DNA of 64,000 bases from Candidatus Nanohaloarchaea archaeon (GCA_013343275.1 CP046106.1:544001-608000), one strand, 5' to 3'; positions 12,332 through 39,559 are shown, numbered from the stretch's first letter. The notes: a model not told the origin generated them from the sequence alone. Numbers and translations: made by a program.

Positions 12332-12446
12332 ATGAAGGGTGGACGTTTTACCTTCGGCCCACATGTTTCGCAACCAAGCCAGCTTTAACTTTAGCTGTCA
12401 AAACCTTTTCTATAAAATTAGAAACTTTGCAGGAGATTCTCAATGA
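12332..12446 (+). promoter_or_regulatory. thrS leader: uORF MKGGRF-T-FGPHVSQPSQL* (12332-12388) with putative +1 frameshift cassette; +1 frame ends in TGA overlapping the thrS ATG
   Basis: ATG AAG GGT GGA CGT TTT ACC; +1 frame 12348-12446 stop-free until ...TCT CAA TGA (ATGA overlap). Confidence 0.75.
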
Positions 12447-14368
12447 GTATTGAAGTAGAACTACCAGACGGCTCGACACTAGAAGTAGACGAAAACGCAA
12501 CAGTAGAAGACGTGGCCTACGAGATAGGTACAGGCCTCGGAGACGACACAGTCGCAGGAAAGATCAACGGCGAACTAGTCGCAAAAGAGGAAAAAGTCAG
12601 CGACGGCGACGAAATAGAGATCGTAACTCCGCAGAGCGACGAATACATCGATGTGCTCAGACACTCCGCCGCACACGTATTCGCACAGGCCCTGAAAAGA
12701 ATCTACGGCGACGAAGTAAAACTTACAATCGGGCCGTGGACAGATGAAGGATTCTACTACGATATCAAAGGAGTTGATCTGGATCAGGAGGACTTCGAGG
12801 AAATAGAGGAAGAGATGCAAAATATAGTAGATGAGGATCTCGATATCGAACGTGAAATGCTGCCCCGAGAAGAAGCAGAGGAGTTCTTCGAAGACAATAG
12901 ATTCAAGCAGGAGATTCTTGAAGAGGAGGCATCTGAAGGAGAGAAGGTCTCATTCTACAAACAGGGAGAGTTCAAGGATTTGTGTAAAGGCCCTCACGTA
13001 GAATCTACTGGCGAAGTCGAGGCCTTCAAGCTGCTGGAGATCGCAGGCGCCTACTGGCGTGGAAACGAGGAAAACGAGATGCTGACACGTGTCTACGGAA
13101 CTGCCTTCCCTTCAGAGGAAGAACTTGAGGATTTCCTGGAGAAGAAGAAAGAGGCCGAGAAACGTGATCACCGGAGGATCGGCGAGGAAATGGACTTGTT
13201 CTCCGTACCTGAGCACGCTCCTGGCTGCCCTCACTATCACCGTGCCGGCATGAAGATCAGGAGAGAGCTGGAAGAATATATAAGAACGAAGAACAAGGAG
13301 CTGGGCTACGAGGAAGTCTGGACTCCAGAGCTGAACAAGGCAGATCTCTGGAAGAAGACAGGCCACTACGAGGCCTTCAAAGAGGACGGCGAAATGTTTG
13401 CATGGGAGCAGGACGACACGGAGTATGGCCTGAAGCCTATGAACTGTGCGAACCACTCCCACATCTTCGACTCCGGAAAGAGAAGTTACAAGGAGCTTCC
13501 TATCAAGCTTTCCGAGTTCGGGACAGTTTACAGGAACGAACAGTCCGGAGAGCTTTCAGGCCTTCTACGCGTTCGCGGCTTCACACAGGACGACGGCCAC
13601 GCATATATCCGGAAGGATCAGATTGAGGAGGAGATCAGGAAGCATCTCGAGATAATTATAGAGATGTACGACGAGTTCGGCTTCGACACACACTTTATAC
13701 TGGAGACAAAGCCGGAAAAGGCTCAGGGACCGGATGAGCTATGGGATGAGGCCGAAAGCTCTCTTAAGAACGCGTTGAACCAGACCGTAGACGACTTCGA
13801 GATCAAACCTGAGGAAGGTGCTTTCTACGGGCCGAAGATCGGTGTTGAAGTAGAGGACGCGATCGGACGTGAATGGCAGCTTGGAACCGTTCAGCTCGAC
13901 TTCGTGATCCCACGTAACTACGGTCTGAAGTACGTAGGAGAGGACAACGAGGAGCACTACCCAGTAATGATCCACAGGGCAATCCTTGGATCTATCGAAC
14001 GGTTCATGGGGGTTATGATCGAGCACTTCGCGGGCGACTTCCCGACATGGCTGGCGCCTGAACAGGTCAGAATCCTGCCAGTAACCGACGACAATATGGA
14101 GTACGCGGAGAAGATCAAGGAAGAACTCTCGGATTTCAGGGTAGAGATCGAGGACCGCAGCTGGACGGTAGGCAAGAAGATTCAGGCCGCACACGACGAC
14201 AACGTACCTTACATGCTGATCCTGGGCGACGACGAGGAAGAAGCAGGAGAAATATCGGTTAGAGACCGTGAGGAAAACGAGGATCGCGGGTTCTCAGTTG
14301 AAGAATTCAGAGAAGCCCTCAGAGAAGAAGTTGAGGAGAAAAAACTGGAGCCCGACTTCCTCCAGTAA
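12443..14368 (+). CDS. thrS: Threonine--tRNA ligase (bacterial-type architecture: TGS, editing, catalytic, anticodon-binding)
   Basis: HSAAH, DLCKGPHV, RDHR, KPMNC, RVRGFTQDD, GAFYGPK, IHRAILGS. Confidence 0.97.
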   Translation: MSIEVELPDGSTLEVDENATVEDVAYEIGTGLGDDTVAGKINGELVAKEEKVSDGDEIEIVTPQSDEYIDVLRHSAAHVFAQALKRIYGDEVKLTIGPWTDEGFYYDIKGVDLDQEDFEEIEEEMQNIVDEDLDIEREMLPREEAEEFFEDNRFKQEILEEEASEGEKVSFYKQGEFKDLCKGPHVESTGEVEAFKLLEIAGAYWRGNEENEMLTRVYGTAFPSEEELEDFLEKKKEAEKRDHRRIGEEMDLFSVPEHAPGCPHYHRAGMKIRRELEEYIRTKNKELGYEEVWTPELNKADLWKKTGHYEAFKEDGEMFAWEQDDTEYGLKPMNCANHSHIFDSGKRSYKELPIKLSEFGTVYRNEQSGELSGLLRVRGFTQDDGHAYIRKDQIEEEIRKHLEIIIEMYDEFGFDTHFILETKPEKAQGPDELWDEAESSLKNALNQTVDDFEIKPEEGAFYGPKIGVEVEDAIGREWQLGTVQLDFVIPRNYGLKYVGEDNEEHYPVMIHRAILGSIERFMGVMIEHFAGDFPTWLAPEQVRILPVTDDNMEYAEKIKEELSDFRVEIEDRSWTVGKKIQAAHDDNVPYMLILGDDEEEAGEISVRDREENEDRGFSVEEFREALREEVEEKKLEPDFLQ

Positions 14369-14441
14369 AGGTCTTCCTCTCACTTTTTTCCTATTTTCGC
14401 TTTTTGAACAAAGTTAAATTTCTGGCACACAATTCCTGTAC

Positions 14442-15551
14442 ATGAAACAAGGACAGTTGGAGAAGTTTGCAGAGATACTTGTCGAGAGATCAGCGGAAAT
14501 TGAAGAAGGAGACAACGTATATCTGGCAGCTTATTCTACAGAGGTGCTTCCTCTGTTTGACGAGGTAAGAAGATACATTATTGAAAAAGGAGCTTATCCT
14601 CACGAGCATCTGATCTACGATTCTCAGCTTGGAAGGGCTGGAATGGATTACCAGTGGCTGAAGCATGCATCTGATGAACAGCTATCACATATCTCCGAGG
14701 CCAAGAGAAAGGAGCTCGAGGAGATGGATGCATACATCAATATAGGAGGCCGTAGAAACGAGAACGAGTTAAATAATATTGACTCAGAGAAAATTTCGAC
14801 CCGGAAGAGAAATACTAAGGCTCTGGCTGACATGAGGCGGGAGATGAAATGGGCCTTGACACGCTACCCTACACATGGAATGGCGCAGAAGGCCTCAATG
14901 TCGACAGAGAGTTTCAGAGACTTCATGTTTGAGGCTATCGACATCGACTGGGAGAAGCTTGAGGAGAAGAATGCGGAGATTAAGGAGAGGTTTGACCAGG
15001 CCGATAAGGTAAGAGTAGTATCGGAAGGTACTGATCTGGAGTTCAGTCTTGAGAACCGGACCGGGATGACCGGTGAGGGGAAACATAACTTGCCTGACGG
15101 AGAGGTATTCTACGCACCGGTGAAGGAGTCTGTCGAAGGAGAGATAGAGTTTACGTATCCTGGCAGAAAGCAGGGTAACGAAGTGAAAAATGTCTACCTG
15201 AAGCTGGAAAACGGCAGAGTGGTTGATTTCAGCGCCTCTAAAAACGAAGAGTTTCTCCGAGAACAGATCAGAACTGATGAAGGCTCAAGATACTTCGGAG
15301 AGTTCGGAATAGGAACTAACTGGAAGATAGACCAGTTCACCAACGAAATGGGATTAGACGAGAAAATTGGTGGCACAGTCCACTTTGCACTGGGAAGCGG
15401 ATTCAAGGGAAGCATGCCGGAAGGAGAAGAACCTAACGACTCTGCCATCCACTGGGACATCGTAAAAGACCTCAGAAAGCCAGAAGGCGATGGAGGAAAA
15501 ATCTATCTCGATGGAGAAGTCGTGATGAAAGACGGAGACTGGATGCTGTGA
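14442..15551 (+). CDS. Aminopeptidase, M29 family
   Basis: NLPDGEVF, GEFGIGTN, DEKIGGTVHFALG, SAIHWD. Confidence 0.92.
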   Translation: MKQGQLEKFAEILVERSAEIEEGDNVYLAAYSTEVLPLFDEVRRYIIEKGAYPHEHLIYDSQLGRAGMDYQWLKHASDEQLSHISEAKRKELEEMDAYINIGGRRNENELNNIDSEKISTRKRNTKALADMRREMKWALTRYPTHGMAQKASMSTESFRDFMFEAIDIDWEKLEEKNAEIKERFDQADKVRVVSEGTDLEFSLENRTGMTGEGKHNLPDGEVFYAPVKESVEGEIEFTYPGRKQGNEVKNVYLKLENGRVVDFSASKNEEFLREQIRTDEGSRYFGEFGIGTNWKIDQFTNEMGLDEKIGGTVHFALGSGFKGSMPEGEEPNDSAIHWDIVKDLRKPEGDGGKIYLDGEVVMKDGDWML

Positions 15552-15610
15552 AAGAAGAGCAGATATTCGCGCCGGTTTGATTTAAAAGTTTTTGAACATC
15601 GGTGTAATGT

Positions 15611-16015
15611 ATGACTACAGTATACGATGTAAAAGCGGAGCCTCTGATCATGGAAGTAGCAGAGGAACTCGAAGACGACTTCGAGGCCCCAGAATGGAGT
15701 AATTTCGTTAAAACAGGACAGCACAAGGATCGCACACCAGACCAAGACAACTGGTTCCACATCAGATCCGCAGCAATCCTGAGAAAGATCTACACAGACG
15801 GCCCGCTAGGAGTCTCCAGACTTCGAACCATCTACGGAGGAAAGAAGAACAACGGACACGGCCCTGAGCACCACGGAAAGGCTTCAGGAAATATTATCCG
15901 TACTGCACTTCAGAAACTTGAAGAAGCAGGCTACGTAGAGACAGAGGAAGGAGAAGGCCGCAAGATCACGGAGAAAGGTAAAAGCTTCCTCGACAACAAG
16001 TCCAACGAACTTTAA
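15611..16015 (+). CDS. rps19e: 30S ribosomal protein S19e
   Basis: PEW-x-x-FVKTG, W-x-x-IR-x-A-x-ILRK-x-Y, IIRTALQ-x-LE. Confidence 0.95.
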   Translation: MTTVYDVKAEPLIMEVAEELEDDFEAPEWSNFVKTGQHKDRTPDQDNWFHIRSAAILRKIYTDGPLGVSRLRTIYGGKKNNGHGPEHHGKASGNIIRTALQKLEEAGYVETEEGEGRKITEKGKSFLDNKSNEL

Positions 16016-16021
16016 AGACCG

Positions 16022-16348
16022 ATGGACGAAGACGAACTGGAGAAACTTCGCGAACAGAAAAAAGAAGAGATGCAGGAACAGCAACAGTCAGAGGAAGAGG
16101 CCCTCGAAGATCAGAGAGATCAGGTCAAACAGGAGGCCTCGAAGTACCTGACAAAGGACGCGAAGGAGAGAATGGGCAACATACGTGTTGCTCAACCAGA
16201 CTTGGCTTCCAGTATCGAGATGCAGATCGCGAGGCTCGGCCGATCAGGACGGGTCGAAAAGGTTACAGATGACCAGCTTAAAGATATATTGAAATCCTTC
16301 CAGAGTGAGAAGGAGAAAAACAGTTCAGATATAAAGTTCAGGAGGTGA
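16022..16348 (+). CDS. PDCD5-like double-stranded DNA-binding protein
   Basis: DELEKLR...LT-x-x-A-x-ER-x-x-NI...D-x-QLK-x-IL; conserved position after rps19e. Confidence 0.85.
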   Translation: MDEDELEKLREQKKEEMQEQQQSEEEALEDQRDQVKQEASKYLTKDAKERMGNIRVAQPDLASSIEMQIARLGRSGRVEKVTDDQLKDILKSFQSEKEKNSSDIKFRR

Positions 16349-16358
16349 AAACTGTACT

Positions 16359-16532
16359 ATGAGTTCAAACAAGTCACTAGGTAAGAAGAAAAGGCTTTCA
16401 AAAGCCAACAAGACAGCTAAATCCGCTCCACGATGGGTTTCACTGAAAGCGTTCGGTATGGACCGGGCAATGAAGAGGTCCATCAAGCCGCGTAAGAGCC
16501 GGCACTGGAGAAGAAACGACACCGACGAGTAA
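16359..16532 (+). CDS. rpl39e: 50S ribosomal protein L39e (not in the ORF track)
   Basis: MSSNKSLGKKKRLSKA...APRWV...RHWRRN; GGAGGTGA SD upstream. Confidence 0.9.
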   Translation: MSSNKSLGKKKRLSKANKTAKSAPRWVSLKAFGMDRAMKRSIKPRKSRHWRRNDTDE

Positions 16533-16547
16533 TCGGGTTTTTGACAA

Positions 16548-16985
16548 ATGACAAGATACAAGTTCAACATTTCAAAGGCCAGAGTTGTAGGCCCGAACAA
16601 GCGTTCAAAGAAGGCAATGAGCATCCTGCGCGAGAAACTGCAGGACGCAGAAGGAGAGGTAAGTATATCTCCGGAGCTTAACCAGGCTATCTGGCAGAAA
16701 GGCGGAGGCAATCCCCCCTCCAAGATAGCTGTCGAAGTTGAAGAAGTCGCTGGAAGAAAAGTTGCAAGGCCTGCAGAAGAGAAAGGCAGAGAAGAAACTA
16801 CTTCTACGACCGAAGAAACAGCTTCCGAGAACTACAGCGACGTAGTCGGAGGTACAGTAGGAGATGCAAAGGACGCGATCTCCGAAATGGAGAATCCTGA
16901 CTACGAGGCACTTCTTGAGGCCGAGAAAGAAGGAAAAGATAGGAAGACTTTGAAGGAATTTATCGAAGGCAAGATGGAAGGATAA
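16548..16985 (+). CDS. rpl31e: 50S ribosomal protein L31e with acidic C-terminal extension
   Basis: KRSKKA...I-x-x-ELNQAIW-x-x-G-x-x-NPP; gene order L39e-L31e-aIF6. Confidence 0.85.
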   Translation: MTRYKFNISKARVVGPNKRSKKAMSILREKLQDAEGEVSISPELNQAIWQKGGGNPPSKIAVEVEEVAGRKVARPAEEKGREETTSTTEETASENYSDVVGGTVGDAKDAISEMENPDYEALLEAEKEGKDRKTLKEFIEGKMEG

Positions 16986-16989
16986 GAAA

Positions 16990-17637
16990 ATGGAACTTTC
17001 TCGCTACAACTACCTCGGCAACTCGAATATAGGCTTCTACGCCACAGTAACCAATTCCCAGGCTATCTTCCCTCCAGAGTTCAAGGAGAAAGAGATGTTC
17101 GATACTGAAGATATAGAGACATATGTAGCGAGAACCAGGCTTGTAGGCCTTTTCACCGCAGGCAACTCCAACAGCATTCTGGTACCTGACGTAGTTACAG
17201 ATGTAGAGAAGAGAAAGATGGAGAAGGCCGGCATAGAGTTCACAGAGATCAGCGCACAGGAAACAGCACTCGGTAACCTGGTGCTGGCGAACGACAAAGG
17301 CGCAGTTATCAGCAAGACATTGGAAGATCAGAAGGAGAAGATTGAGGAGGCCTTGCAGGTAGAGGCCGAAGTAATGGATATTGCAGGAACGCCTAACCCT
17401 GGTTCATGCGGGGTAGCAAACAGTAGAGGAGTACTCCTTCACAGAGATACTTCGGAAGAAACTGCCGAGAAAGTGAAAGAAGTTCTGGATGTAGAATACG
17501 TAGATATCGGGACCGTTAACACAGGATCGCCTTTCGTTGGCGCAGGGGTTCTGGCAAACGACAAAGCAGTTTTAACTGGCCAGGACACTTCAGGACCGGA
17601 AGTAGGCCGGATCGACCGCGTACTGGTCGAAAAATAG
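16990..17637 (+). CDS. eif6: Translation initiation factor 6 (aIF6)
   Basis: GNSNIG, LVG-x-x-x-x-GNSN, ALGN-x-x-LAND, GTVN-x-G-x-x-x-VG-x-G. Confidence 0.92.
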   Translation: MELSRYNYLGNSNIGFYATVTNSQAIFPPEFKEKEMFDTEDIETYVARTRLVGLFTAGNSNSILVPDVVTDVEKRKMEKAGIEFTEISAQETALGNLVLANDKGAVISKTLEDQKEKIEEALQVEAEVMDIAGTPNPGSCGVANSRGVLLHRDTSEETAEKVKEVLDVEYVDIGTVNTGSPFVGAGVLANDKAVLTGQDTSGPEVGRIDRVLVEK

Positions 17638-17740
17638 TTCTTCAGGCCTGTAAAACGAGGCCCAGACTTTTCTCGCATTATTTTTACCTTTGAATCATAA
17701 CGCTCTCTTTAAATTCAGGGCTTTTCCATTCTAAAATATT

Positions 17741-20254
17741 ATGCCAAACGTACTATGGTTCGAAAACATTACAGCAGACGATACCTCCAGAGTAGGGGGT
17801 AAGAGTGCCAACCTCGGAGAACTTCAGAACGAAGTGGACGTACCTGTACTGCCAGGATTTGCCACTACAGCCAGTGCCTACGAGCAGTTCATGAAGGAAA
17901 CCGGCCTAAAAGATACTATCGAAAACCTTCTCTCAGAACTCGATATCGATGATGTAAACGATCTTCAGAAGAGAGGGGAGAAGATCAGAGGCCATATCCA
18001 GGACGCAGATATGCCAGAAGACCTGAGAAAGGACTTCGTTAAATCATACAGAGAACTGGAGGAGAAGCTTGGCGTCGACGAACCAAAGGTCGCAGTACGT
18101 TCCAGTGCAACAGCAGAGGACCTGCCAGGAGCATCATTCGCAGGCCAGCAGGACACATATCTAAACGTCTCCGGAGAGACCGAACTTATCCAGAAAATCA
18201 AAGACTGCTTTGCCTCACTTTTCACCAACAGAGCGATCTCCTACCGTGAGGATAAAGGATTCAGCCACTTCGATGTCAAGCTTTCTGCTGTAGTACAGAA
18301 GATGGGCCGTTCCGATACAGGATCCGCAGGAGTTATGTTCACACTCGATCCCGACAGCGGGTTCGACGAAGTAGTTACAATTAACGCAGCGTACGGTCTC
18401 GGAGATCTGGTTGTCGCAGGAGAGGTCAACCCAGACGAATTCACAGTACTGAAGAGAAACATGGGAATACTTGAAAGAAAGACCGGCGACAAGGAAATCA
18501 AGCTGGTTAGAAGCGAGGAAGAAGGGAAAGACAATGAAAGAGTCAAAGTACCTCAGGAAGAACGTGAAAAATACTGCATCACCGACAACCAGGTGAAAGA
18601 ACTCGCGAAGTACGGAATGAAGATCGAAGAGCACTACGGAAAACCCATGGATATTGAATGGGTGCTTGACGGCCAGACCAAGGAACTCTACATAGTCCAG
18701 GCCCGTCCAGAAACCGTACAGAGCGAGAAAGACGAAAACGTAATCGAAAACTACAAACTGAAAGAAGAATCTGAAGTACTTCTCGAGGGAGAGGCCATCG
18801 GCTCCAAGATCGGAAGCGGAGAGGCCCACGTACTGGACAGCCCGAAGCAGATCGACAAGTTCGAGGAGGGAGAGGTCCTGGTAACCGATATGACCGATCC
18901 TGACTGGGAACCGATCATGAAAAAGGCCGGAGCAATAGTCACGAACAAAGGAGGCCGAACCAGTCACGCAGCAATCGTCTCCAGAGAGCTGGGAGTACCG
19001 GCTGTAATCGGAACCGAAACCGCAACCTCAGAACTACACGACGGCCAGAACGTAACAGTCGATGGATCATCATCTACAGGAAAGATCTGGGAAGGTGCTC
19101 TCGAATTCGACATCGAGGAACACCACCTGGACGAGATACCGGAGACAGATACCGACGTACAGATCAATATTGGAGAACCAAGCGAGGTATTCAACCTTGC
19201 CCAGCTACCGGTCGATGGAGTAGGCCTTGCAAGAGAAGAGTTCATAATCTCCTCACATGTAGGAGAACACCCTCTGCACCTGATCGAGGAGGACAGAGGC
19301 GACGAATACGTGGAGGCCCTGCGTTCCGGCATAGGTAAGATCGGGGCCGCATTCTATCCCGACCAGGTAGTGGTAAGGCTTTCTGATTTCAAGTCAGATG
19401 AGTACGCACAGCTTGAAGGAGGAGAAAAATATGAGCCTGACGAGGCCAACCCTATGCTTGGTTTCAGAGGCGCCTCCCGTTACTACGACGACGAGTTCAC
19501 CAAGGCCTTCGAACTGGAGTGTGAGGCCCTGCGTAAATGTGTCGATGAGCTAGGCCTCGATAACCTGACAGTTATGGTTCCTTTCTGCCGTACAATAGAG
19601 GAGGCCAGGAAGGTCCGTGCAAAGATGAAAGAGTACGGCCTGGACCAGGGCGACATCGAGGTATACGTCATGGCAGAGATACCGGCGAATATCCTGCAGG
19701 CCGAGGAGTTCGCAGAGACCTTCGACGGGTTCTCGGTCGGTACCAACGACCTCACACAGCTGACTCTCGGAGTCGACCGCAACAGCGATAAACTGTCGCA
19801 TGTATTCGATGAGAGAGACGAGGCCGTGAAGAAATCGGTCAGAACCTTGATCAACAAGGCCCATCGTAAAGACCGGCACGTAGGCATCTGCGGAGACGCA
19901 CCTTCTACACACGACGAGTACGCCCAATTCCTTGTAGACGCAGGAATCGACGCAATCTCTGTATCACCGGACGTAGCCCTCGAGACAATTATGAAAGTAG
20001 CGGAGATCGAGGAAAACCAGGACGAGAGAAGCTCTGTGGAAGTCGATGTGGATGTAGAGGCCGATATAGGAAGTACCGCAGGCCAGATCTACGATACACT
20101 GAACCAGCAGGGCAAGACCACAGCCAACAAGATTCTGGAAACAGCTTCAGGAGTCAGTTCAAAGAAACTGAACCAGGCCCTCGGATGGCTTGCCAAGGAA
20201 GGCAAGATAGAGGTAGAGGAAGACGATGAAGGCAAGAAGTACTCTCTGAGATAA
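17741..20254 (+). CDS. ppsA: Phosphoenolpyruvate synthase with extra C-terminal winged-helix-like domain
   Basis: VGGK, VAVRSSATAEDLP-x-ASFAGQ, GGRTSHAAIVSRELG, EANPMLGFRGA, FSVGTNDLTQ. Confidence 0.95.
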   Translation: MPNVLWFENITADDTSRVGGKSANLGELQNEVDVPVLPGFATTASAYEQFMKETGLKDTIENLLSELDIDDVNDLQKRGEKIRGHIQDADMPEDLRKDFVKSYRELEEKLGVDEPKVAVRSSATAEDLPGASFAGQQDTYLNVSGETELIQKIKDCFASLFTNRAISYREDKGFSHFDVKLSAVVQKMGRSDTGSAGVMFTLDPDSGFDEVVTINAAYGLGDLVVAGEVNPDEFTVLKRNMGILERKTGDKEIKLVRSEEEGKDNERVKVPQEEREKYCITDNQVKELAKYGMKIEEHYGKPMDIEWVLDGQTKELYIVQARPETVQSEKDENVIENYKLKEESEVLLEGEAIGSKIGSGEAHVLDSPKQIDKFEEGEVLVTDMTDPDWEPIMKKAGAIVTNKGGRTSHAAIVSRELGVPAVIGTETATSELHDGQNVTVDGSSSTGKIWEGALEFDIEEHHLDEIPETDTDVQINIGEPSEVFNLAQLPVDGVGLAREEFIISSHVGEHPLHLIEEDRGDEYVEALRSGIGKIGAAFYPDQVVVRLSDFKSDEYAQLEGGEKYEPDEANPMLGFRGASRYYDDEFTKAFELECEALRKCVDELGLDNLTVMVPFCRTIEEARKVRAKMKEYGLDQGDIEVYVMAEIPANILQAEEFAETFDGFSVGTNDLTQLTLGVDRNSDKLSHVFDERDEAVKKSVRTLINKAHRKDRHVGICGDAPSTHDEYAQFLVDAGIDAISVSPDVALETIMKVAEIEENQDERSSVEVDVDVEADIGSTAGQIYDTLNQQGKTTANKILETASGVSSKKLNQALGWLAKEGKIEVEEDDEGKKYSLR

Positions 20255-20285
20255 GGCCTCTACTCCCAAAAATTCTCTTACTCTT

Positions 20286-20702
20286 TTATTTTATCCCAAT
20301 TACCTGATGCTCTACTCTCTGGCCATCATGCTTCAGAATTACATCATACCTGCCATCGGGAATGCTTGAAGTCTGTGCCTTGTAGACTACGGAGGCCAGG
20401 CATGAGTTAAAGTAATTGGCCGGTGCCTGAGTCTCGTTCTTTGCTATAATATCCAATTTGATAGTGTCCCCGCTTCTGCTGTACCTGTAGGAAAGATCGG
20501 CCTCGGTATTGTTTACAGGGTAGTGTCCGCTGAAAGCCAGAACGTTACCCGGCTTCAAGCTTATATCAAAGCCGGTCGTTCTATCGTAACGGCACTCTGT
20601 CTCCAGATCTGTGAAGTTAATCTGTTCTGATGGTGTTTCAAGAGCCAGAAAAGCCAGTGCAAGAACTAGAACCCCTCCCGTAACAAGCCAAAACCTGTTC
20701 AT
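20286..20702 (-). CDS. Hypothetical membrane-anchored/secreted protein
   Basis: N-terminal hydrophobic segment, N-x-S/T sequons, two Cys. Confidence 0.6.
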   Translation of the reverse strand: MNRFWLVTGGVLVLALAFLALETPSEQINFTDLETECRYDRTTGFDISLKPGNVLAFSGHYPVNNTEADLSYRYSRSGDTIKLDIIAKNETQAPANYFNSCLASVVYKAQTSSIPDGRYDVILKHDGQRVEHQVIGIK

Positions 20703-21084: not shown

Positions 21085-21138
21085 GTTTTTATATTGTTTT
21101 AAGTAATAGCTTTAAGGGTAAGGTGAGAAATTTTAGTT

Positions 21139-22456: not shown

Positions 22457-22457
22457 A

Positions 22458-26664: not shown

Positions 26665-26738
26665 TGGGTTCGCCCAGATTCGAACTGGGGATCTTCGCCT
26701 TGTAAGGGCGACGTCATAACCAACTAGACCACGAACCC
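26665..26738 (-). tRNA. tRNA-Val(TAC)
   Basis: GGGTTCG/CGAACCC acceptor, TCGCC-CTTACAA-GGCGA anticodon arm, CCCAG-TTCGAAT-CTGGG T arm; CCA not encoded. Confidence 0.95.
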
Positions 26739-33299: not shown

Positions 33300-33338
33300 A
33301 ACGCGGTTTTACTCAACGGAATCTTAAATAGATAATTT

Positions 33339-34091: not shown

Positions 34092-34134
34092 AAAGAAGAA
34101 ATGATGGTAGGTGGTTTAAACCGGTTTTCCAGAA

Positions 34135-35289
34135 CTATCTCTGGAGTTCTAGATCGATGTTTCTGTCCCACATTTCCTGGGCCAGTTCGCCGTCGTACAT
34201 CATCTGCTGCACCAGCTCATCTGCATTCTCCTTTCTCTCCTGGTGCTCCTGAAGGAACTCGTTCAACTCTTCTACCAGTATTTCCTTGATCTCGCCAGTC
34301 ATCATCTCGCCGGAGGAGTACTTCTCAGCGATCTCCCGGATTCTCTCATCGTCCTCCATCAAAAGGTTTCTCAACCACTGGAAAGAGGTATCAACTGCCA
34401 GATCAGCGCCTTCCTCACGGTGTTCTTCCAGAGTATCGCCTCCACCTGAGTAAGCATGCTTCTTGACCTTCTCCTCGACCTCTTCAGGGCTGTCATCCAG
34501 CATGATCGCGGTCTTCGGCTTCGAGGAACTCATCTTCCCCTCAGGCCCTGTCAACGCCGGGATAAACTTGGAGTGGATCGCCGCTGTCTTCTTGTGGCCG
34601 AACTTCTCGGCAATATCCCTCTGGATCCTCCAGTACGGATCCTGATCGATCGCAGCCGGGATAACGCACCGCTTGTCCTCGAAGAATGTCGGAATATTCT
34701 GTATAGCAGGCCAGAAATTCATTCCAATATTGGTCGAGCCTTCAAAGCCGAAAACGCTCTGGGCCTGTGAATTATTGATTTTTTCGGCAATCTTCACGAT
34801 TCCATCATACATGTGACCCATGTATTCTCTGTTTCGGAAGATGAATGTCTTGTCAGGATCAAAGCCAACAGCTGCGATCTCCCTGATATTATCCTCTGCG
34901 TACTTATCGATTTCCTCATCTGTTATATCGCGGTCCCAGTACTTCTCGTCGTCAGTAACCTGTATATACACGTTGACATCGAACTTCTCCTGAATCCACT
35001 TCGTGAAGTAGAAACTGATAATATGGCCTATATGCATCTTGCCGCTAGGCCCGATACCGGTATACAGGAAGAAGCCGTCTTCTTCCTCGTACTCATCAAG
35101 CGCCTTGTCAAGGCCTCTGTGGGAGTAGATGAAGTCTCTCTTCATGTAGAGGTTCTCATCTCCAGCCAGATCGAAGAATCTCTCCTTCAACTCCTCGTCG
35201 ATCTCCTCGGTTCCGAATTTATCTATTAGTCTATCGTAGTCTACCTGACCCTCCACATCGAAAGGCGTCACATCAAAATCCTCTGCCAT
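34135..35289 (-). CDS. trpS: Tryptophan--tRNA ligase (archaeal type)
   Basis: VTPF, DY-x-x-LI-x-x-FG, YTG-x-GPS-x-x-MHIGH, DQDPY, KMSSS; AGGAGG SD. Confidence 0.96.
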   Translation of the reverse strand: MAEDFDVTPFDVEGQVDYDRLIDKFGTEEIDEELKERFFDLAGDENLYMKRDFIYSHRGLDKALDEYEEEDGFFLYTGIGPSGKMHIGHIISFYFTKWIQEKFDVNVYIQVTDDEKYWDRDITDEEIDKYAEDNIREIAAVGFDPDKTFIFRNREYMGHMYDGIVKIAEKINNSQAQSVFGFEGSTNIGMNFWPAIQNIPTFFEDKRCVIPAAIDQDPYWRIQRDIAEKFGHKKTAAIHSKFIPALTGPEGKMSSSKPKTAIMLDDSPEEVEEKVKKHAYSGGGDTLEEHREEGADLAVDTSFQWLRNLLMEDDERIREIAEKYSSGEMMTGEIKEILVEELNEFLQEHQERKENADELVQQMMYDGELAQEMWDRNIDLELQR

Positions 35290-35305
35290 AGTTTTTATCG
35301 TCCTC

Positions 35306-36358
35306 CTAGTTAAGTTCTGATCGAAGAAAGCTTTTCAAGATTTCACAGTATGCTTCCAGGCTTTCAACCTCCACATACTCGTCTTCAGCGTGAAGATTGT
35401 AGCCTTCCGGGCCGAAACAGACCGCAGGAACACCTTTCTCGGTGAAGAACCTCATGTCGCTCGCAAAGTTCTCCCTCCTGAAATCAACCGTTTCTCCAGA
35501 AACTTCCTCAGCTGAAGTTTTCAGGGCCTGAGCTCCAGAATTTTCCTCCGAAGTCTCCAGCATCGGGGCCTCCGCCAGGACTTCGTACTCCAGGCCTCCC
35601 ATTTCTTCTAGATCTCTCAGAACTTCCTCCTTCGGGTACTGGTTTGAGTACCGGATATCTACCTGTAGAGAGGCCTTGTCAGGTATCTGGTTGACAGGTC
35701 CTTCAGCGGAGATATTGCCCAGGTTGATCGTGGTTCCAAACTCGGCCTCATGGTTAAATCCTGATCTGAACTCCATGTACTTTTTGAGGAGTTTTTCGGC
35801 CGCGTTCTCGCCTCTATCAGGTTTGGACGCGTGAGCGTTCTCCCCTGAGGCCTTTAACTCGAGCTGGAGAACCCCTTTCTGCTCTGTGACTATTGATGGG
35901 AAATGACCTGAGTCATCGGGCTCCGCTGAAATTACCAGTTCCGGTTCAATCCCTGTTTCTTCAGTTACGTGGCCTGTGCCGTTAAATCCTCCTCTTTCCT
36001 CGTCAGATGTAATTAGGATTCCTAGATTCTCGGCCTCAACTTTCTGGGCAGCTTCGATGATACAGGCAATCCCTGACTTCATGTCGGCTGTTCCTCGGCC
36101 GTAAATTCGGCCGTTACGCCTTTCTGGTCGGAAGAGCGAGTCTTTTGCATCTACCACATCGATATGGCCGTGGAGGAGAATTTGCGGTTCACCCCTCGTA
36201 GCCAGTAGAGATTTTTCTCCTTCCTCCTCGAATCTCTGTATATCAAAGTCTTCTGGCAGTTCTTTCTCAACCAGTTGAAGGCCTTTCTCTATTTCTCCTA
36301 GGTTTCCTTCTACCGTCCTGAGTTTTACCAGTTCTTCAGTCATTTCCTCTATATTCAT
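35306..36358 (-). CDS. M20 family metallo-hydrolase (ArgE/DapE-like)
   Basis: HGHIDVV, GRGTADMK, DEE-x-GG, HAS-x-P, H-x-x-DEYV; ATGA overlap with the upstream GNAT gene. Confidence 0.88.
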   Translation of the reverse strand: MNIEEMTEELVKLRTVEGNLGEIEKGLQLVEKELPEDFDIQRFEEEGEKSLLATRGEPQILLHGHIDVVDAKDSLFRPERRNGRIYGRGTADMKSGIACIIEAAQKVEAENLGILITSDEERGGFNGTGHVTEETGIEPELVISAEPDDSGHFPSIVTEQKGVLQLELKASGENAHASKPDRGENAAEKLLKKYMEFRSGFNHEAEFGTTINLGNISAEGPVNQIPDKASLQVDIRYSNQYPKEEVLRDLEEMGGLEYEVLAEAPMLETSEENSGAQALKTSAEEVSGETVDFRRENFASDMRFFTEKGVPAVCFGPEGYNLHAEDEYVEVESLEAYCEILKSFLRSELN

Positions 36359-37129
36359 GCCATTCTCTCGCCTCCTTCAGTGAATTCGTAGTCGGACTTC
36401 CTGGCTGCTCTTCCCAGGCTGTGTGCGGCCTCCGATTCGCTGACCTCTCCTGCTACAACCAGGGCATCGCCATCCTCGAAGGACATGTTGAGGCCTTCTT
36501 CTCCATACATAAAGTCCTGGAAATCATCGTTCTCCGGTATGCTGGAGTACATTCCTCCATCGTAGATGTCTGCGTAGGCCTCTCTCATTACCGGGCCTTC
36601 CATTTCTTTGTCGACGTCGATCGCTTCTCCCAGATCCTGTACTTCTTCCAGCATCTCCTCTTCTTTTCCTGGCTGTGGGTATACTTCGAAGCAGTTGTCT
36701 GCGCAGGCGTACATGTTCGGGTTCTGCGTTCTATAGCCGAAAAGCTCGTCTCCCTCCGCCTCCTCCACCACTCCTCTGCTGAGTAGTGTACTGCCGACGC
36801 ATCTTCCCTGCAGGCTATCGTCAACCGCAAGACCTACCTCGTAGACAGTGTCGTCCATCCGGGATAGGCCTGAGAATGCTACGTACTCTCCGTCCTCGTC
36901 TTTTGCTGTGACGAGTGTAGGTACTCTGAGGTGGTCTCTTGCGTCCTGATCGGTTGGGACACCTTCCTTGGAGAAAGCGTTCTGCGCGACGTCAACAAGC
37001 TGTTGTTCGGCCTCGGAGTTGGCCTCTAGAAATTCTTCTGGATTTTGATGTACCTCTATCTCAAGGCTTCCAAAAACGTCCACCCTGTTCTCGGGCTTCC
37101 GATGTCGAATAGTTTTCAGTCTGTTCCAT
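36355..37129 (-). CDS. GNAT-fold acyltransferase-like protein, proposed to be made by +1 frameshift joining 37129-37073 to the ORF called from GTG 37083
   Basis: LAV-x-x-x-LQGR-x-VGS acetyl-CoA motif; the upstream ATG frame MEQTENYSTSEAREQGGRF-W-KP* carries the TTT-TGG cassette and is acidic, whereas the +1-frame sequence upstream of the GTG is basic and has no ATG. Confidence 0.65.
37061..37129 (-). promoter_or_regulatory. Trp-sensing uORF B: MEQTENYSTSEAREQGGRF-W-KP*
   Basis: CAG GGT GGA CGT TTT TGG AAG CCT TGA; a +1 slip UUU->UUU enters the GNAT frame. Confidence 0.75.
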
Positions 37130-37332
37130 AAGTCAAATCACGTAAGCAAAGATTGCCAGAAAAGCTTTAAATAGCTTACAGAGCTTCTACCTGGTTTTTA
37201 GAGATAGCTGAAGCTGTAGAGATAAGTTTAACCTGGAGTAATACTGGCAAAGCTAAAATAAAACGTATGTGGAGTTAAGGCCATGAGAAGTTCTTGATTG
37301 AGGAGATCTGTAGATAGCTGTGGCTCAGAGAA

Positions 37333-37377
37333 TTATTTCTGTGCAGGAGGCCAAAAGCATCCACCTTTCTGAGCCAT
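37333..37377 (-). promoter_or_regulatory. Trp-sensing uORF A: MAQKGGCF-W-PPAQK*
   Basis: ATG GCT CAG AAA GGT GGA TGC TTT TGG; TTTTAA about 29 nt upstream; flanked by the 9-bp inverted repeat TGGCTCAGA/TCTGAGCCA. Confidence 0.7.
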
Positions 37378-37400
37378 GTTGAGATGTTGAAGGTTCACTG

Positions 37401-38159
37401 TTAAAATTCTTTTCTCTGGGCCCGGTAGCCAAGCGTTCCATTGTATCCATTTGTTGACATGAGAACCGGGTAGAACGGTTTTTCAGCACTTAAACTCTCG
37501 TCTCCTCTGGTAGCGTAGACTTCACCTTCCTCCACTTTCTTGAAGTTCTCGGCCTGGAAGCTCCAGTCACCTTCTACCTTATCAAATACCTCGAATAACT
37601 GTGGACTTGATTTCCGGGCCTTACCGTCTATAACGTTCTGGGAAGCTAGGAAGTTTTTGATTACACCTAGCGCGTTTTCAACGGCCTGATCTGTTCCCTG
37701 GAATCCCGCCTCTACAACCACTCCTTCTACGTGTTCGTGAAGCTTCCCTTCTTTACCAGGGAAATGCGCTGCATTCTTTGCTCCTGTCGATGCAAGCATG
37801 TCCCGGATTTCGTCGTTCAGAGTTGAGCAGGTTGCGAAAGGTAGCGGATAGGAATGCGTAGTGTGTATGTCCAGAAGCTTTGTGCCTTCTACAGCATCGA
37901 TTATCTTCGAGGCCAACCTCTCCTCGTACCTCTCTGACTCAGGATCTCCAGGAAAGGATCTGTTCAGGTCTGACTCGAGAAATCTCTGACCTTCAAGAAG
38001 CGCTTTTTCGTTTCCGATCACAAACTGGACCGGTTTACGGAACTCTCTTTCCTCCGATAGAAACTTCTCGATCGCTTTCTTGCCTGCCGGCTCATCACCG
38101 TGAACCGAGCCCATTACAGTAAATTCAGGCTCTCCATCTCCTCTTCTCACTACCTTCAT
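37401..38159 (-). CDS. Succinylglutamate desuccinylase/aspartoacylase family (M14-like)
   Basis: HGDEPAG, DLNRSFPG, LDIHT, VEAG. Confidence 0.88.
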   Translation of the reverse strand: MKVVRRGDGEPEFTVMGSVHGDEPAGKKAIEKFLSEEREFRKPVQFVIGNEKALLEGQRFLESDLNRSFPGDPESERYEERLASKIIDAVEGTKLLDIHTTHSYPLPFATCSTLNDEIRDMLASTGAKNAAHFPGKEGKLHEHVEGVVVEAGFQGTDQAVENALGVIKNFLASQNVIDGKARKSSPQLFEVFDKVEGDWSFQAENFKKVEEGEVYATRGDESLSAEKPFYPVLMSTNGYNGTLGYRAQRKEF

Positions 38160-38199
38160 AAAAAGAAAATTCTTCGAAGGTAATTCAAAAAGATTTCAC

Positions 38200-39360
38200 C
38201 TATCTCAGGGCCTCTACGGCCGCCAGTTTCTCTCCACTCAGATACCTGACAAAGGCTCCTCCTGCTATAGAGACATGTGAGAAATCTTCCAGTTCGTAGT
38301 TAAATCTCTGTACAAGCGAGGACGTGTGGCCTCCTCCAAGAACAGTGTAGGCATCGGACTCTGCCATGGCCTTGACTATTTTCCGCGTTCCTTCCGGATG
38401 TTCTTCGAAAGCACCCATAGGCCCTTTCATAACTACGGATTCCGCATCCCTGATCTCTTCAGCAAATTTTTCTGCAGTTTCAGGGCCTATATCCCACGTC
38501 ATTTCGTCCGGTATTTCCTCTACCCTGTACTCTCCAGAATCCGTTCTGACGTCCTCCGGGAGCACTACCTTCTCGCTGTAGTTATTGATTACTCTCTCAA
38601 GTTCTCCTTTCTTTGAGTCAAGGCCGTGGTCTTCAATCCACTGCTTCTTCTCTCCCAGATCGTGGCCTTCTATAATGAGAGCGAGTTCTCCAGGAATTCC
38701 CCCCAGTAGGACTTTATCCACAGATTCTATCATTTCATCCAGTATACCGATCAGGTCGGAAGGTTTCTCCCCACCGAGAACAAGCACCCCGTTATCAAAC
38801 CTGTCTCTAACTTTTCCACAGCTCTCAAGCTCCTTCTCCATGACAGGGCCTGCGTAAGAATCCAGTTTCTTGGTAAACCCTACCATGGAGCCATGGCTCC
38901 TGTGAGCTGCGGAGAACGCATCATCGACGTAGAGATCAAATTCTGGTGCAATCCTTTTCACAAATATATCTTCGGCGTGTTGTTCTGCCGAGGCATTTCT
39001 GAGCTCCTCTGAAAGAAACCTTACATTCTCCAGCAGCGCTACACCTCCTTCATCCATGTCTTCAACAGCTTCAGCAAGTTCAGGCCCGAAGAAACCCGGA
39101 ATAAATTCTACTTCATTCCCGAGAGAATCAGATAGGATCTCTGAATGCTTTTTCAGCGACATGAAATCGTTTCTACCTGGTCGGCCCTGGTGAGCCATCA
39201 CCACTGTCTTCGCGCCTCTATCAGAAAGCTCCTCTACCGTCTCAAGGTACCTCTTGAATCTTACAGTTTTCTGTGGTTCGCCGTCCTCAATCGGAAGGTT
39301 TAGATCAGTTCTGAGAAGAACTTCCTGGCCCTGAATATCAATATCATCTATAGAGTTCAT
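38200..39360 (-). CDS. pgk: Phosphoglycerate kinase
   Basis: RTDLNLP, AHQGRPG, LENVRF, DAFSAAHR, DIGPET, GGGHT, HVSIAGGA. Confidence 0.95.
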   Translation of the reverse strand: MNSIDDIDIQGQEVLLRTDLNLPIEDGEPQKTVRFKRYLETVEELSDRGAKTVVMAHQGRPGRNDFMSLKKHSEILSDSLGNEVEFIPGFFGPELAEAVEDMDEGGVALLENVRFLSEELRNASAEQHAEDIFVKRIAPEFDLYVDDAFSAAHRSHGSMVGFTKKLDSYAGPVMEKELESCGKVRDRFDNGVLVLGGEKPSDLIGILDEMIESVDKVLLGGIPGELALIIEGHDLGEKKQWIEDHGLDSKKGELERVINNYSEKVVLPEDVRTDSGEYRVEEIPDEMTWDIGPETAEKFAEEIRDAESVVMKGPMGAFEEHPEGTRKIVKAMAESDAYTVLGGGHTSSLVQRFNYELEDFSHVSIAGGAFVRYLSGEKLAAVEALR

Positions 39361-39411
39361 GGCTGCTGTATTACGATGTAATACTTCCAGGTTTTTAACT
39401 TTTCCAAGCAG

Positions 39412-39420
39412 CATTTAAGA
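39412..39420 (+). promoter_or_regulatory. Putative TATA box for the leaderless glyS leader transcript
   Basis: TTTAAG begins 31 nt before the uORF ATG at 39445. Confidence 0.5.
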
Positions 39421-39444
39421 TTCCGGTCAAAACTTCTCCATACA

Positions 39445-39559
39445 ATGAAAGGTGGATGTTTTGGACTGTCCTCAGAGGCAGTCACACGGCAAAGTATTCA
39501 ATAATCTAAAACCTTCTAGTTCTGACTATAAAAATTTCCACGAGAGTGTTTCTGCATGA
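39445..39559 (+). promoter_or_regulatory. glyS leader: uORF MKGGCF-G-LSSEAVTRQSIQ* (39445-39504) with putative +1 frameshift cassette; +1 frame ends in TGA overlapping the glyS ATG
   Basis: ATG AAA GGT GGA TGT TTT GGA; +1 frame 39461-39559 stop-free until ...TCT GCA TGA. Confidence 0.75.

Follow-up and report, generated by a model that had tools for sequence, protein, structure and literature searches.

Bacterial prfB, encoding release factor 2, carries an autoregulatory +1 frameshift site at which the gene product decodes the sensor stop codon. Bacterial amino-acid operons and pheST are controlled by leader-peptide attenuation (trpL, hisL, pheM and pheL, the last being the subject of PMC3082878), T-box riboswitches precede aminoacyl-tRNA synthetase and amino-acid genes in Firmicutes, and the +1 frameshifting of antizyme is a polyamine sensor. 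Frameshifting in the +1 direction at hungry codons is known from E. coli starvation experiments and from the Ty1 CUU-AGG-C site, as outlined in a review (PMC5009743), according to which trans-frame proteins specific to starvation are without a known example. A uORF frameshift is further described for C. elegans zip-2 (PMC11831180), and termination-reinitiation at ATGA/TGATG overlaps has been shown in a haloarchaeon (Haloferax) and in E. coli (PMC6728339, PMC10666635). Literature searches returned no description of codon-sensing frameshift leaders of the kind presented here.

We analysed a window of 64 kb (the whole stretch of DNA under study), in which an initial annotation had noticed four copies of a short cassette located in uORFs ahead of synthetase genes. 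The four cassettes lie exactly where they had been placed (Table 1), all of them share the frame of an ATG lying upstream, and each uORF closes early in frame 0, as had been described. The pattern GGTGGAYGYTTT has 4 matches in the window against 0.02 expected from 100 dinucleotide shuffles, and 0 of the 100 shuffles gave 4 matches. Eight matches were found in the 916-kb source genome, which also has looser copies of the cassette upstream of proS and hisS. Within the phylum, one of minute halophilic archaea, the motif is present in 57 of 70 genomes, and across 41 genomes the cassette pattern yielded 137 matches versus 15 for the reversed pattern. We read 109 of the 137 instances, drawn from these 41 genomes; because the genomes are related, such instance counts overstate independence. 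A short ATG-started leader ORF holds the cassette in 100 of the 109 instances read, and a leader carries two or three cassettes at most.

Table 1. Features of the thrS, Trp and glyS leader loci, in coordinates of the window
Feature	Position	Strand	Remarks
TATA-like box AGATTATTAAG	12297..12307	+	~30 nt upstream of thrS leader ATG; putative promoter
thrS leader ORF, frame 0	12332..12388	+	peptide MKGGRFTFGPHVSQPSQL, then stop
thrS leader cassette	12338-12349	+	sensor codon ACC (Thr) 12350-12352
+1-frame open stretch of thrS leader	12339..12446	+	from cassette GTG to TGA (12444-12446) overlapping thrS start (ATGA)
thrS (threonine--tRNA ligase)	12443..14368	+	ATG begins 12443; Pfam; NCBIfam TIGR00418, 642 bits
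trpS (tryptophan--tRNA ligase)	34135..35289	-	last gene of operon; Pfam; NCBIfam NF008924, 545 bits
M20 / ArgE-DapE-family deacylase	35306..36358	-	start overlaps GNAT stop (ATGA)
GNAT acetyltransferase ORF	36355..37083	-	+1 frame of inner Trp leader
Inner Trp leader ORF	37061..37129	-	peptide MEQTENYSTSEAREQGGRFWKP, then stop; cassette 37084-37073; sensor TGG 37072-37070
TATA-like box TATTTAAAGC		-	inner Trp leader's own; ~35 nt upstream
Mini-ORF	37284..37228	-	downstream of outer Trp leader
+1-frame stretch of outer Trp cassette	37275..37364	-	ends at TAA 37277-37275
Outer Trp leader ORF	37333..37377	-	peptide MAQKGGCFWPPAQK, then stop; cassette 37365-37354; sensor TGG 37353-37351
TATA-like box ATTTAAGA	39413..39420	+	~30 nt upstream of glyS leader ATG; putative promoter
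glyS leader ORF, frame 0	39445..39504	+	peptide MKGGCFGLSSEAVTRQSIQ, then stop
glyS leader cassette	39451-39462	+	sensor codon GGA (Gly) 39463-39465
+1-frame open stretch of glyS leader	39452..39559	+	from cassette to TGA (39557-39559) overlapping glyS start (ATGA)
glyS (glycine--tRNA ligase, dimeric type)	39556..41268	+	ATG begins 39556; NCBIfam TIGR00389, 665 bits

The leaders share the anatomy (AAR) GGU GGA YGY NUU XXX, in which YGY is sometimes UAY and XXX, the sensor, is a codon for the amino acid of the downstream gene. The constancy of GGTGG among the relatives is partly a product of the search pattern, and the Gly codons (GGT GGA), thought at first to be invariant, are not, the second one also being GGC or GGT in variant cassettes. 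The Phe codon TTT reported in front of the sensor indeed occurs there, but so do GTT and CTT.

A cognate codon was found directly 3' of the cassette in 60 of the 60 instances located ahead of nine synthetase families (Thr 15, Gly 11, Ser 8, Tyr 7, Val 6, Trp 6, Cys 4, Lys 2 and Phe 1), with synonymous sensor codons in use (ACC/ACA, TCC/TCT, TAT/TAC, GTA/GTG and AAA/AAG). The initial annotation had matched the sensors ACC, GGA, TGG and TGG of the window to the downstream genes for ThrRS and GlyRS and to the TrpRS operon; this match stands, and the rule extends to other loci of the source genome (Val before valS, Tyr before tyrS, Cys before cysS and, with looser cassettes, Pro before proS and His before hisS) as well as to the leaders of relatives, where the 60 instances include Ser/serS, Lys/lysS and Phe/pheS, three pairs absent from the window. 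The observation made in the window is confirmed. The short ATG-started ORFs and the 60 cognate codons point to a sensor decoded in frame 0; it is a single codon per cassette, not a run, and at least 13 different amino acids are represented. The regulon had been proposed as one of synthetase genes, which it does include, but it is wider and comprises GNAT/M20 deacylase modules, TrpB-like and IlvA-like PLP enzymes and an aminotransferase.

These leaders are probably amino-acid-specific translational sensors, in which a prfB-like +1 frameshift at a hungry sense codon would be followed by termination-reinitiation or fusion. The transcript would begin at or beside the leader ATG; the TATA-like box ~30 nt before the thrS leader ATG implies a leaderless leader ORF, and in 39 MK/MQ-type leaders the ATG is immediately preceded by CA and has a TTTAA-like box ~25-38 nt upstream. 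When charged cognate tRNA is plentiful, translation would continue in frame 0 to a stop 2-24 codons past the sensor, far from the main start, and with this early stop little would be passed on to the main gene. When the aminoacyl-tRNA is scarce, the A site would be empty, and GGUGG, placed only 5 nt behind the P-site codon, would pair with the 16S 3' end. The tRNA for Phe (or for Val/Leu) that occupies NUU in the P site would re-pair one base forward on UUN. The shifted ribosome could then either meet a +1 stop at the main ATG (ATGA, ATGnTAA and similar) and reinitiate there, or translate the enzyme itself, where this is encoded in the +1 frame, as a trans-frame fusion. The outcome would be a feedback by which the synthetase, biosynthetic enzyme or deacylase belonging to that one amino acid is up-regulated. 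A hungry-codon +1 frameshift had already been suggested in the initial annotation; the cognate-codon and open-frame tests that the annotation had itself set as possible refutations were passed and support it, the frameshift itself being deduced from the sequence.

Past the cassette, the +1 frame of 47 of 48 synthetase leaders meets its first stop only within -15 to +12 nt of the main ATG, whereas this holds for frame 0 in 0/48 and for frame +2 in 6/48; in 19 of the 47 leaders the +1 stop overlaps the main start as ATGA. The mean probability of staying open was 0.28 for shuffled spacers. No sensor of the type xTA or xTG precedes a base that completes a +1 stop, and frame 0 closes 21-84 nt past the cassette start. 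The initial annotation had the +1 frame ending on the ATG of thrS and glyS or being the GNAT frame, with which the coordinates in the window agree, and the open +1 frame recurs in the orthologues. From its last stop to the cassette, the +1 frame is without ATG, GTG or TTG in 89 of 100 leaders, which argues that entry into this frame would take place at the cassette. Against a frameshift, 4 of 100 leaders, including one at a GNAT locus in a relative, have a +1-frame ATG upstream of the cassette.

A GTG (gGTGga) lies in the +1 frame inside every cassette, that of the hisS variant included, and could open a +1 ORF without a shift. The leaders might then consist of two overlapping ORFs, with the +1 ORF or the enzyme starting at the cassette GTG and frame-0 stalling at the sensor only governing access to this GTG or to the main start. 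The ORF listing indeed places the starts of GNAT and of the +1 uORFs at the cassette GTG, and one relative has +1-frame ATGs just upstream of the cassette at the GNAT locus. We nevertheless consider such an arrangement unlikely: a ribosome stalled with NUU in the P site would occlude the GTG, which lies 8 nt upstream, and therefore starvation would block the +1 ORF, not open it. Only if +1 translation were repressive would the sign be right for a synthetase, and coupling across stop/start overlaps such as ATGA is normally positive. The cassette GTG, moreover, lacks a Shine-Dalgarno motif of its own, the one present overlapping it, and in MK-type leaders it is 7 nt from the presumed 5' end. The fixed NTT (TTT over the preferred TTC) and YRY would also be left unexplained.

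The main genes carry their own GGTG motif 7-9 nt before the start and so need no coupling for basal expression. For the outer cassettes of tandem leaders, and likewise for the branched-chain leaders (Ile/Leu and Val/Leu), the +1 frame ends 100-700 nt before the next long ORF, a gap on account of which termination-reinitiation cannot explain these leaders. That they deliver no ribosomes to a start codon would suit a sensor that stalls without recoding, its pause altering mRNA folding, stability or transcription termination and the open +1 frame being a by-product; the SD-like motif of the main genes, the T-rich tracts 3' of the outer Trp leader and a sensor-codon logic as in trpL/pheM-type leaders point the same way. 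Such a sensor would, however, have one codon instead of a run, and it explains neither the contrast in openness between the +1 frame and the other two nor the presence of enzymes without a start directly in the +1 frame. Four leaders folded no better than their shuffles (z = 0.31, -0.09, -1.18 and 0.74), and these four revealed no terminator/antiterminator hairpins or significant structure; the spacers show no sequence conservation between genera. We regard stalling without recoding as quite improbable. A transcription attenuator was rejected, there being no run of cognate codons and no significant structure in the 4 leaders tested.

The tandem Trp leaders precede the GNAT-M20-trpS operon. Of the outer copy it had been said that it ends beside a mini-ORF; its +1 stop does fall 7 nt within this mini-ORF, but the mini-ORF is not conserved in relatives. 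For the GNAT ORF of the source genome no ATG is present ahead of the domain, and the sole start candidate is the cassette GTG. We predict that GNAT is made as a trans-frame fusion from the inner Trp leader, and the arrangement of leader and GNAT recurs in three further genomes (4 in all). Directly after several Trp cassettes the +1 frame encodes conserved proteins without a start of their own, namely GNAT (4 genomes), an M20 deacylase, an aminotransferase, an inositol-monophosphatase-family protein and a 120-aa protein family. On balance we favour the view that a whole archaeal phylum may use hungry-codon +1 frameshifting as a general amino-acid sensor, in which a portable 12-nt cassette would be set to any amino acid by the next codon, with synthetases served via termination-reinitiation, and with GNAT, the M20 deacylase, the aminotransferase and others made only as trans-frame fusions during starvation.

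The cassette uses codons that are minor in the genome (GGT is 20% of Gly, CGY 19% of Arg and TTT 25% of Phe), including UUU for Phe although UUC is preferred. The encoded residues vary (R/C/Y and F/V/L) while the nucleotide patterns YRY and NTT hold, and constraints of this kind at the nucleotide level would fit slippage better than selection on the peptide. Arrest by the nascent peptide, in which K-G-G-(R/C)-F, situated in the exit tunnel or peptidyl-transferase centre, would delay the joining of the incoming aminoacyl-tRNA's residue and the cassette would be kept for its peptide, finds some agreement in the KGG[RC][FV] recognisable in 100 leaders and in the Lys that precedes the cassette in 82 of 110 instances. 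It is nonetheless highly improbable, as the choice of codons is far narrower than a peptide needs, the two variable positions change chemically, the peptide has just 6 residues with the sensor in the A site in 40 of 100 leaders, and the hisS variant encodes GDYD yet retains GGTGA.

Slippage would depend on the P-site codon, which is TTT in 98, GTT in 11 and CTT in 1 of 110 instances, NUU being found everywhere except in the hisS variant. Phe and Leu tRNAs can re-pair at +1 on UUN, Val tRNA on GUU poorly, and the tRNA on GAT not at all; the hisS leader of the source genome reads AAA GGT GAC TAT GAT CAT, with this non-slippery GAT and a +1-frame ATG at the same spot. The 16S rRNA 3' end was found to be ...GGAUCACCUCC, and the cassette GGUGG (GGUGA in the hisS leader) is complementary to its ...AUCACCUCC-3'. 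GGTG is also the genomic Shine-Dalgarno motif, found 5-10 nt (mode 7) ahead of gene starts, and the 5 nt from the GGUGG of the cassette to the P-site codon are at the short end of the natural spacing range. The suggestion that GGUGG can pair with the anti-SD is borne out by this complementarity and by the use of GGTG before genes; pairing during elongation is putative.

As in T-box systems, the genes concerned are synthetases and biosynthesis genes, and one swappable cognate triplet sets the specificity. Like the triplet of a T-box specifier loop, it moreover corresponds to the cognate amino acid's codon and not to an anticodon, so that an untranslated leader in which uncharged tRNA pairs with the sensor triplet might be envisaged. 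This is scarcely credible here: at gathering thresholds Rfam found only three tRNAs in the window and no family on the leaders, no stable or conserved fold was seen in the four leaders folded, and pairing of this type explains neither why 100 of 109 triplets follow an ATG in their own frame, with an early frame-0 stop after them, nor why openness is specific to the +1 frame. Unlike in a T-box, the triplet would be read by the ribosome inside an ORF. With leader-peptide attenuation the leaders have in common a short ORF whose cognate codons report charged tRNA and which can control a synthetase operon, but they have one sensor codon and, in the four folded, none of the hairpins, and their output would be read through a second reading frame.

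The known hungry-codon cases equally combine a slow A-site sense codon with a P-site tRNA able to re-pair at +1; Ty1, however, relies on a constitutively rare tRNA and makes Gag-Pol, and the E. coli cases come from the laboratory or are incidental. If our reading is right, the leaders would be the first natural case of a class that the 2016 recoding review calls unknown. Antizyme and zip-2 also use a regulatory +1 shift that reports the metabolic or translational state and triggers a feedback response, but they are eukaryotic single genes and their signal is not a specific aminoacyl-tRNA. As in the termination-reinitiation pairs, the stop of the +1 ORF overlaps or abuts the main start, before which an SD-like GGTG lies at 7-9 nt, whereas the upstream ORF here would be reachable only via the +1 frame of the leader and is not an ordinary upstream gene.

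The same register as in prfB had been pointed out in the initial annotation, and the five-codon layout agrees: an internal SD-like stretch rich in G is separated by a single spacer codon (UAU in prfB, YGY or UAY here) from a P-site codon with UU at its end, and the slowly decoded sensor codon comes next, followed by C (here in 61 of 110 instances). In both, what decodes the sensor is supplied in greater amount through the product of the gene. Where prfB has a stop for a release factor, the leaders have a sense codon for an aminoacyl-tRNA; their host is an archaeon, and the SD spacing is 5 nt instead of 3, which puts the cassette inside and prfB outside the natural range. The shifted ribosome would mostly be delivered to a start codon via a stop/start overlap and not make the protein directly, and the cassette is modular, being re-used with at least 13 sensor amino acids.

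The initial annotation had pointed to a cassette (a fixed 12-nt stretch, GGT GGA YGY TTT, followed by a sensor codon) in short leader ORFs ahead of aminoacyl-tRNA synthetase (aaRS) genes. We recovered all four copies of GGTGGAYGYTTT in the window where they had first been noted (4 matches vs 0.02 predicted, a number reached by 0/100 dinucleotide shuffles), each with a nearby ATG in frame, with ACC, GGA, TGG and TGG read from the sequence as sensors and with an early stop in the leader frame (frame 0) 2-12 codons further on. The downstream genes encode threonine--tRNA ligase, glycine--tRNA ligase and, in one operon, a GNAT acetyltransferase, an M20 (ArgE/DapE-type) deacylase and tryptophan--tRNA ligase. 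The course described for the +1 frame (the frame reached after a one-base forward slip at the cassette) held as well: in the thrS and glyS leaders it ends at a TGA that overlaps the ATG with which the following long ORF starts, behind the inner of the two tandem Trp cassettes it is the downstream long ORF itself, and behind the outer one it stops inside a mini-ORF. Coupling of the outer Trp cassette through this mini-ORF was rejected, as the mini-ORF is not conserved in 3 relatives.

The genome is a single 915,886-bp contig with one archaeal-type 16S rRNA gene (RF01959, 1519 bits) and carries 8 copies of the exact motif, 4 of them outside the window. The expectation that the sensor would be cognate at other loci too was borne out for valS (GTA), tyrS (TAT) and cysS (TGT); the fourth outside copy, with sensor ATT, precedes an operon headed by a GNAT-like protein of 393 aa together with an M20 deacylase, and its leader contains a second cassette, GGTGGCCGCGTT CTA, eleven codons past the ATT sensor. 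Looser scans added a double leader (Val+Leu) in front of a 172-aa protein without known family, a bacterial-type proS with two tandem leaders (GGTGG(C/A) TAY GTT CC(G/A)), a hisS leader (AAA GGT GAC TAT GAT CAT) with a +1 frame open for 52 codons to ATGA, and a serS leader with a cassette broken by a 54-nt in-frame insertion and TTT TCT still present. Intact leaders thus stand at 8 synthetase loci of this genome, with a cognate sensor in 8/8. None was seen here before ileS, leuS, metS, aspS, the archaeal-type proS or pheS, and a scan of this genome with any Gly codons gave no leader with a first Gly codon other than GGT.

Several of these loci have features of their own (see the table). The serS insert consists of two short hairpin-like inverted repeats, and a same-genus relative has an intact serS leader, MKGGRFSHRTHIATNQA*; a repeated mobile element was rejected, there being no second copy in the genome. 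A distance of 2 kb separates the two proline--tRNA ligase genes. Behind each of the Ile/Leu and Val/Leu leaders comes another small ORF starting M(T/K)..LQH, with the bases CTACAACAC common to both, and in the Val/Leu case its end (...GGA GGC CGG TAC TGATG) overlaps the start of the 172-aa gene. A Leu-type cassette, MKYSCDPVAQGGCVLVHRFK*, directly before an ORF with a glutamine-amidotransferase domain and adjoining a tRNA-Glu gene, is an uncertain candidate. ARAGORN found only 33 tRNA genes in the whole genome, none for Trp or Asn; the missing ones are probably intron-containing or split genes that it overlooked.

Coordinates of cassettes, leaders and associated genes (L numbers denote DNA stretches)
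Feature	Location	Strand	Remarks
Thr cassette	window 12338	+	
Gly cassette	window 39451	+	
Outer Trp cassette	window 37365	-	
Inner Trp cassette	window 37084	-	
GNAT	window 36355-37083		Trp operon
M20 ArgE/DapE-type deacylase	window 35306-36358		Trp operon
tRNA genes Val-TAC, Met-CAT, Leu-CAA, Pro-GGG	window 26665-26738, 45463-45537, 46275-46359, 56554-56626		
serS leader insert	L002:3211-3264 = genome 670710-670763	+	54 nt between CGT and TTT, upstream of serS
Proline--tRNA ligase, short bacterial-type	L221:388-1611		family II, 408 aa, without insertion domain; two tandem Pro-sensor leaders
Proline--tRNA ligase, archaeal-type	L221:2471-3946		family I, 492 aa; without leader
393-aa GNAT-like protein	L003:6221-7402		Ile/Leu operon; GNAT assignment a tentative lead only
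M20 ArgE/DapE-type deacylase	L003:4418-5509		Ile/Leu operon
Ile/Leu leader region	L003, genome about 250470-250400	-	
Val/Leu leader region	L002, genome about 672760-672700	-	
Leu-type cassette	genome 319111; L005:1783-2607	-	candidate leader only, uncertain
92-122-aa acidic protein	L027:1134-1499 (-); L080:419-784 (+); L074:723-1082 (+); L043:2329-2604 (-)		

The exact motif was found in 33/41 sampled genomes of the order (137 matches vs 15 with the reversed pattern) and in 57/70 genomes of the phylum, counts that, the genomes being related, do not represent independent events. By family it occurs in f1 46/49, f4 8/8, f3 2/10, f2 0/1 and f5 0/1. We read 109 of the 137 instances, and 100 of the 109 counted as leader-like, meaning that the ORF starts with ATG and has no more than 45 residues and that frame 0 closes within 90 nt. 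Downstream genes were taken as the first long ORFs, which were clustered and their representatives named by Pfam and NCBIfam, and start codons were assigned by rule. The predicted match between sensor and gene extends to the relatives. Cassettes standing ahead of genes from nine synthetase families number 60, and the sensor is cognate in 60/60 (Thr 15, Gly 11, Ser 8, Tyr 7, Val 6, Trp 6, Cys 4, Lys 2 and Phe 1), some of the 60 being two cassettes before one gene. Genes of other kinds likewise suit their sensor: Trp sensors precede those for a TrpB-like PLP enzyme, for an aminotransferase and for M20 deacylases and GNATs, and an Ile sensor precedes one for an IlvA-like PLP enzyme. Odd pairings are Lys before an endonuclease V gene and Phe before a carboxylate-amine-ligase-like gene; an Arg "sensor" upstream of an aldehyde dehydrogenase (L012) was rejected as a leader for want of an in-frame ATG. 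Synonymous sensors are in use (ACC/ACA, TCC/TCT, TAT/TAC, GTA/GTG, ATT/ATC, AAA/AAG, CTA/CTG), which implies that the triplet is read as a frame-0 codon. Sensors exist for W, T, G, V, S, L, I, Y, C, F, K, H and P, and among the 109 instances read there were none for D, E, N, Q, A or M. The element is a conserved modular leader ORF with a sensor codon cognate to the regulated gene.

A further finding concerns the +1 frame, which had been predicted to reach the start codon in relatives as well. Among 48 synthetase leaders with an assignable ATG, 47 have it open all the way from the cassette to a point no more than 15 nt from the main ATG, as compared with 0/48 for frame 0 and 6/48 for frame +2. 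The stop of the +1 frame lies at -15..+12 nt relative to the ATG in the same 47 leaders; it is formed by ATGA in 19 and starts 4-5 nt after the A of ATG (ATGnTAA, ATGnnTGA) in 10. The spacers measure 57-177 nt, and shuffled spacers are open with a mean probability of 0.28. Omitted from this count were 12 of the 60 aaRS instances, namely six Trp-tRNA-ligase instances and six (r104, r82, r22, r12, r100, r77) that had no ATG by rule or a mis-called start; by eye, an xTGA overlap is present in r12, r100 and r77, and r22 ends at a TTG start. In 89/100 leaders no start codon of the +1 frame is present in the interval from its preceding stop to the cassette, and in MK-type leaders (starting ATG AAR, with the cassette directly after) the TGA of ATGA(A/G) closes it upstream, so the +1 frame is entered at the cassette. 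This second frame is kept open to the main start or itself encodes an enzyme.

The latter holds for several Trp cassettes, where a conserved protein without an ATG of its own starts in the +1 frame directly after the cassette. The GNAT of the window, with orthologues in 3 other genomes, is encoded in this way (N-terminus ...SLEIEV(H/Y)QNP), and would be made by frameshifting with a frame 0/+1 junction of the type ...EQGGRF|GSLEIEVHQNPEEF. Further examples are an M20 deacylase, a class I/II aminotransferase, an inositol-monophosphatase-family protein and a 92-122-aa acidic protein (26-79% identity, without Pfam family), the last encoded only in the +1 frame after Trp cassettes, directly upstream of TrpB-like or TrpRS genes, in 4 genomes. 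Several enzymes of these genomes lack a conventional start, and their gene models are corrected accordingly. The Trp and Ile/Leu operons each pair a GNAT-type acetyltransferase (tentative in Ile/Leu) with an M20 deacylase, which suggests an N-acyl-amino-acid cycle under amino-acid control.

Across 110 leader cassettes the consensus reads AA(G/A) GGT GGA YGY (T>G>C)TT NNN C, in which the invariance of GGTGGA among relatives partly follows from a search pattern that fixed it. Genome-wide, GGT makes up 20% of Gly, CGY 19% of Arg and TTT 25% of Phe codons. The encoded residues change (R/C/Y; F/V/L) while the YRY and NTT patterns stay; judged by the sequences, selection on the cassette acts at the nucleotides. 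An arrest caused by the nascent peptide appears very unlikely to us. GGTG, at the cassette located 5 nt before the NTT codon, is enriched genome-wide 5-10 nt (mode 7) before gene starts and lies 7-9 nt before regulated synthetase starts; the 16S rRNA 3' end reads ...GGAUCACCUCC. We consider it fairly probable, on this comparative basis, that the leaders work by hungry-codon +1 frameshifting, with the prfB design and a sense codon as sensor. A ribosome awaiting the scarce aminoacyl-tRNA would shift +1 on NUU, aided by SD-like pairing, and would then either terminate and reinitiate at the main ATG or read on into the enzyme; such a model has the right sign of regulation. GTT replaces TTT in 8/10 cassettes when the sensor starts with C vs 3/100 otherwise (Fisher 2e-8); on a slippage model, this substitution would keep clear of UUU-C, on which perfect re-pairing of tRNA-Phe would make the shift constitutive. 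Initiation of the +1 frame at a GTG inside the cassette is unlikely: that GTG is always present in this frame, but the stalled ribosome would cover it, and NTT and YRY would be left without explanation. Attenuation without recoding is quite unlikely, the structure-based form being disfavoured by folding of four leaders, which gave no stable fold (z = 0.31, -0.09, -1.18, 0.74). Rfam found no known RNA family on the leaders, and a T-box-like RNA is barely credible.

Upstream of the leader ATG we found a TTTAA-type box at 25-38 nt and a CA directly before the ATG, which together suggest that the leader transcripts are leaderless. A wyosine-forming Taw1 domain (PF08608) turned up neither in the genome nor in the Haloferax control, and Trm5 was found; tRNA-Phe therefore probably carries m1G37 only, which may have a bearing on slippage at UUU. 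Poorly fitted by every model, the frameshift reading included, are the outer cassettes of tandem leaders, the two-tier Ile/Leu and Val/Leu leaders, in which the +1 frames stop far from any long ORF, and the non-slippery GAT of the hisS variant.

A species-wide scan with the MK-type leader ATGAARGGTGGAYGYTTT gave at least 117 stretches; among the matches listed, 41 titles name nanohaloarchaeal taxa, 8 read 'uncultured archaeon' and the rest are scattered single matches in unrelated bacteria or thaumarchaea. The numbers of non-nanohaloarchaeal matches among those listed are compatible with chance, about 140 chance matches being expected by an arithmetic estimate. The genome G016, 96% complete and from the same family, has 0 exact cassettes and no thrS leader (L096:1250-1500), indicating that the leader system was lost or replaced in that lineage. 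A distant family without the exact motif has the thrS leader ATG AAG GGT GGA TGT CTT ACA, with 36 open +1 codons in AT-rich DNA that end 10 nt past the ATG.

The element is a phylum-wide, codon-addressable sensor, and from its sensor set one can read off the amino acids that are monitored by these host-dependent cells. It also offers synthetic biology in archaea a compact part that is re-targeted by one codon change. In bacteria, aminoacyl-tRNA synthetase and amino-acid genes are controlled by T-boxes, attenuators and protein operators; for archaea we are aware of no general amino-acid sensor that acts at the RNA level. Starvation-induced 'hungry codon' frameshifting has been familiar since the 1980s as an error seen in the laboratory, and if the frameshift reading is true it has here been harnessed for regulation. 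Full-text literature searches, with subscription-only papers outside their scope, found no description of such a leader element or of an archaeal RNA-level amino-acid sensor, and a term search of a review of archaeal recoding (PMC8211752) found no passage on synthetase leaders. Of starvation-specific trans-frame proteins from hungry-codon frameshifting, a passage of a 2016 recoding review (PMC5009743) states that 'no examples are known'. What we regard as new is the combination: a codon-addressable amino-acid sensor that works via a second reading frame and serves a whole regulon and a whole phylum. Its single parts resemble known recoding and coupling devices, the closest being prfB, antizyme and Ty1 +1 frameshifting, leader-peptide attenuation, T-boxes and the termination-reinitiation coupling of haloarchaea; in the proposed mechanism the nanohaloarchaeal element has the prfB design, with a sense codon as sensor.
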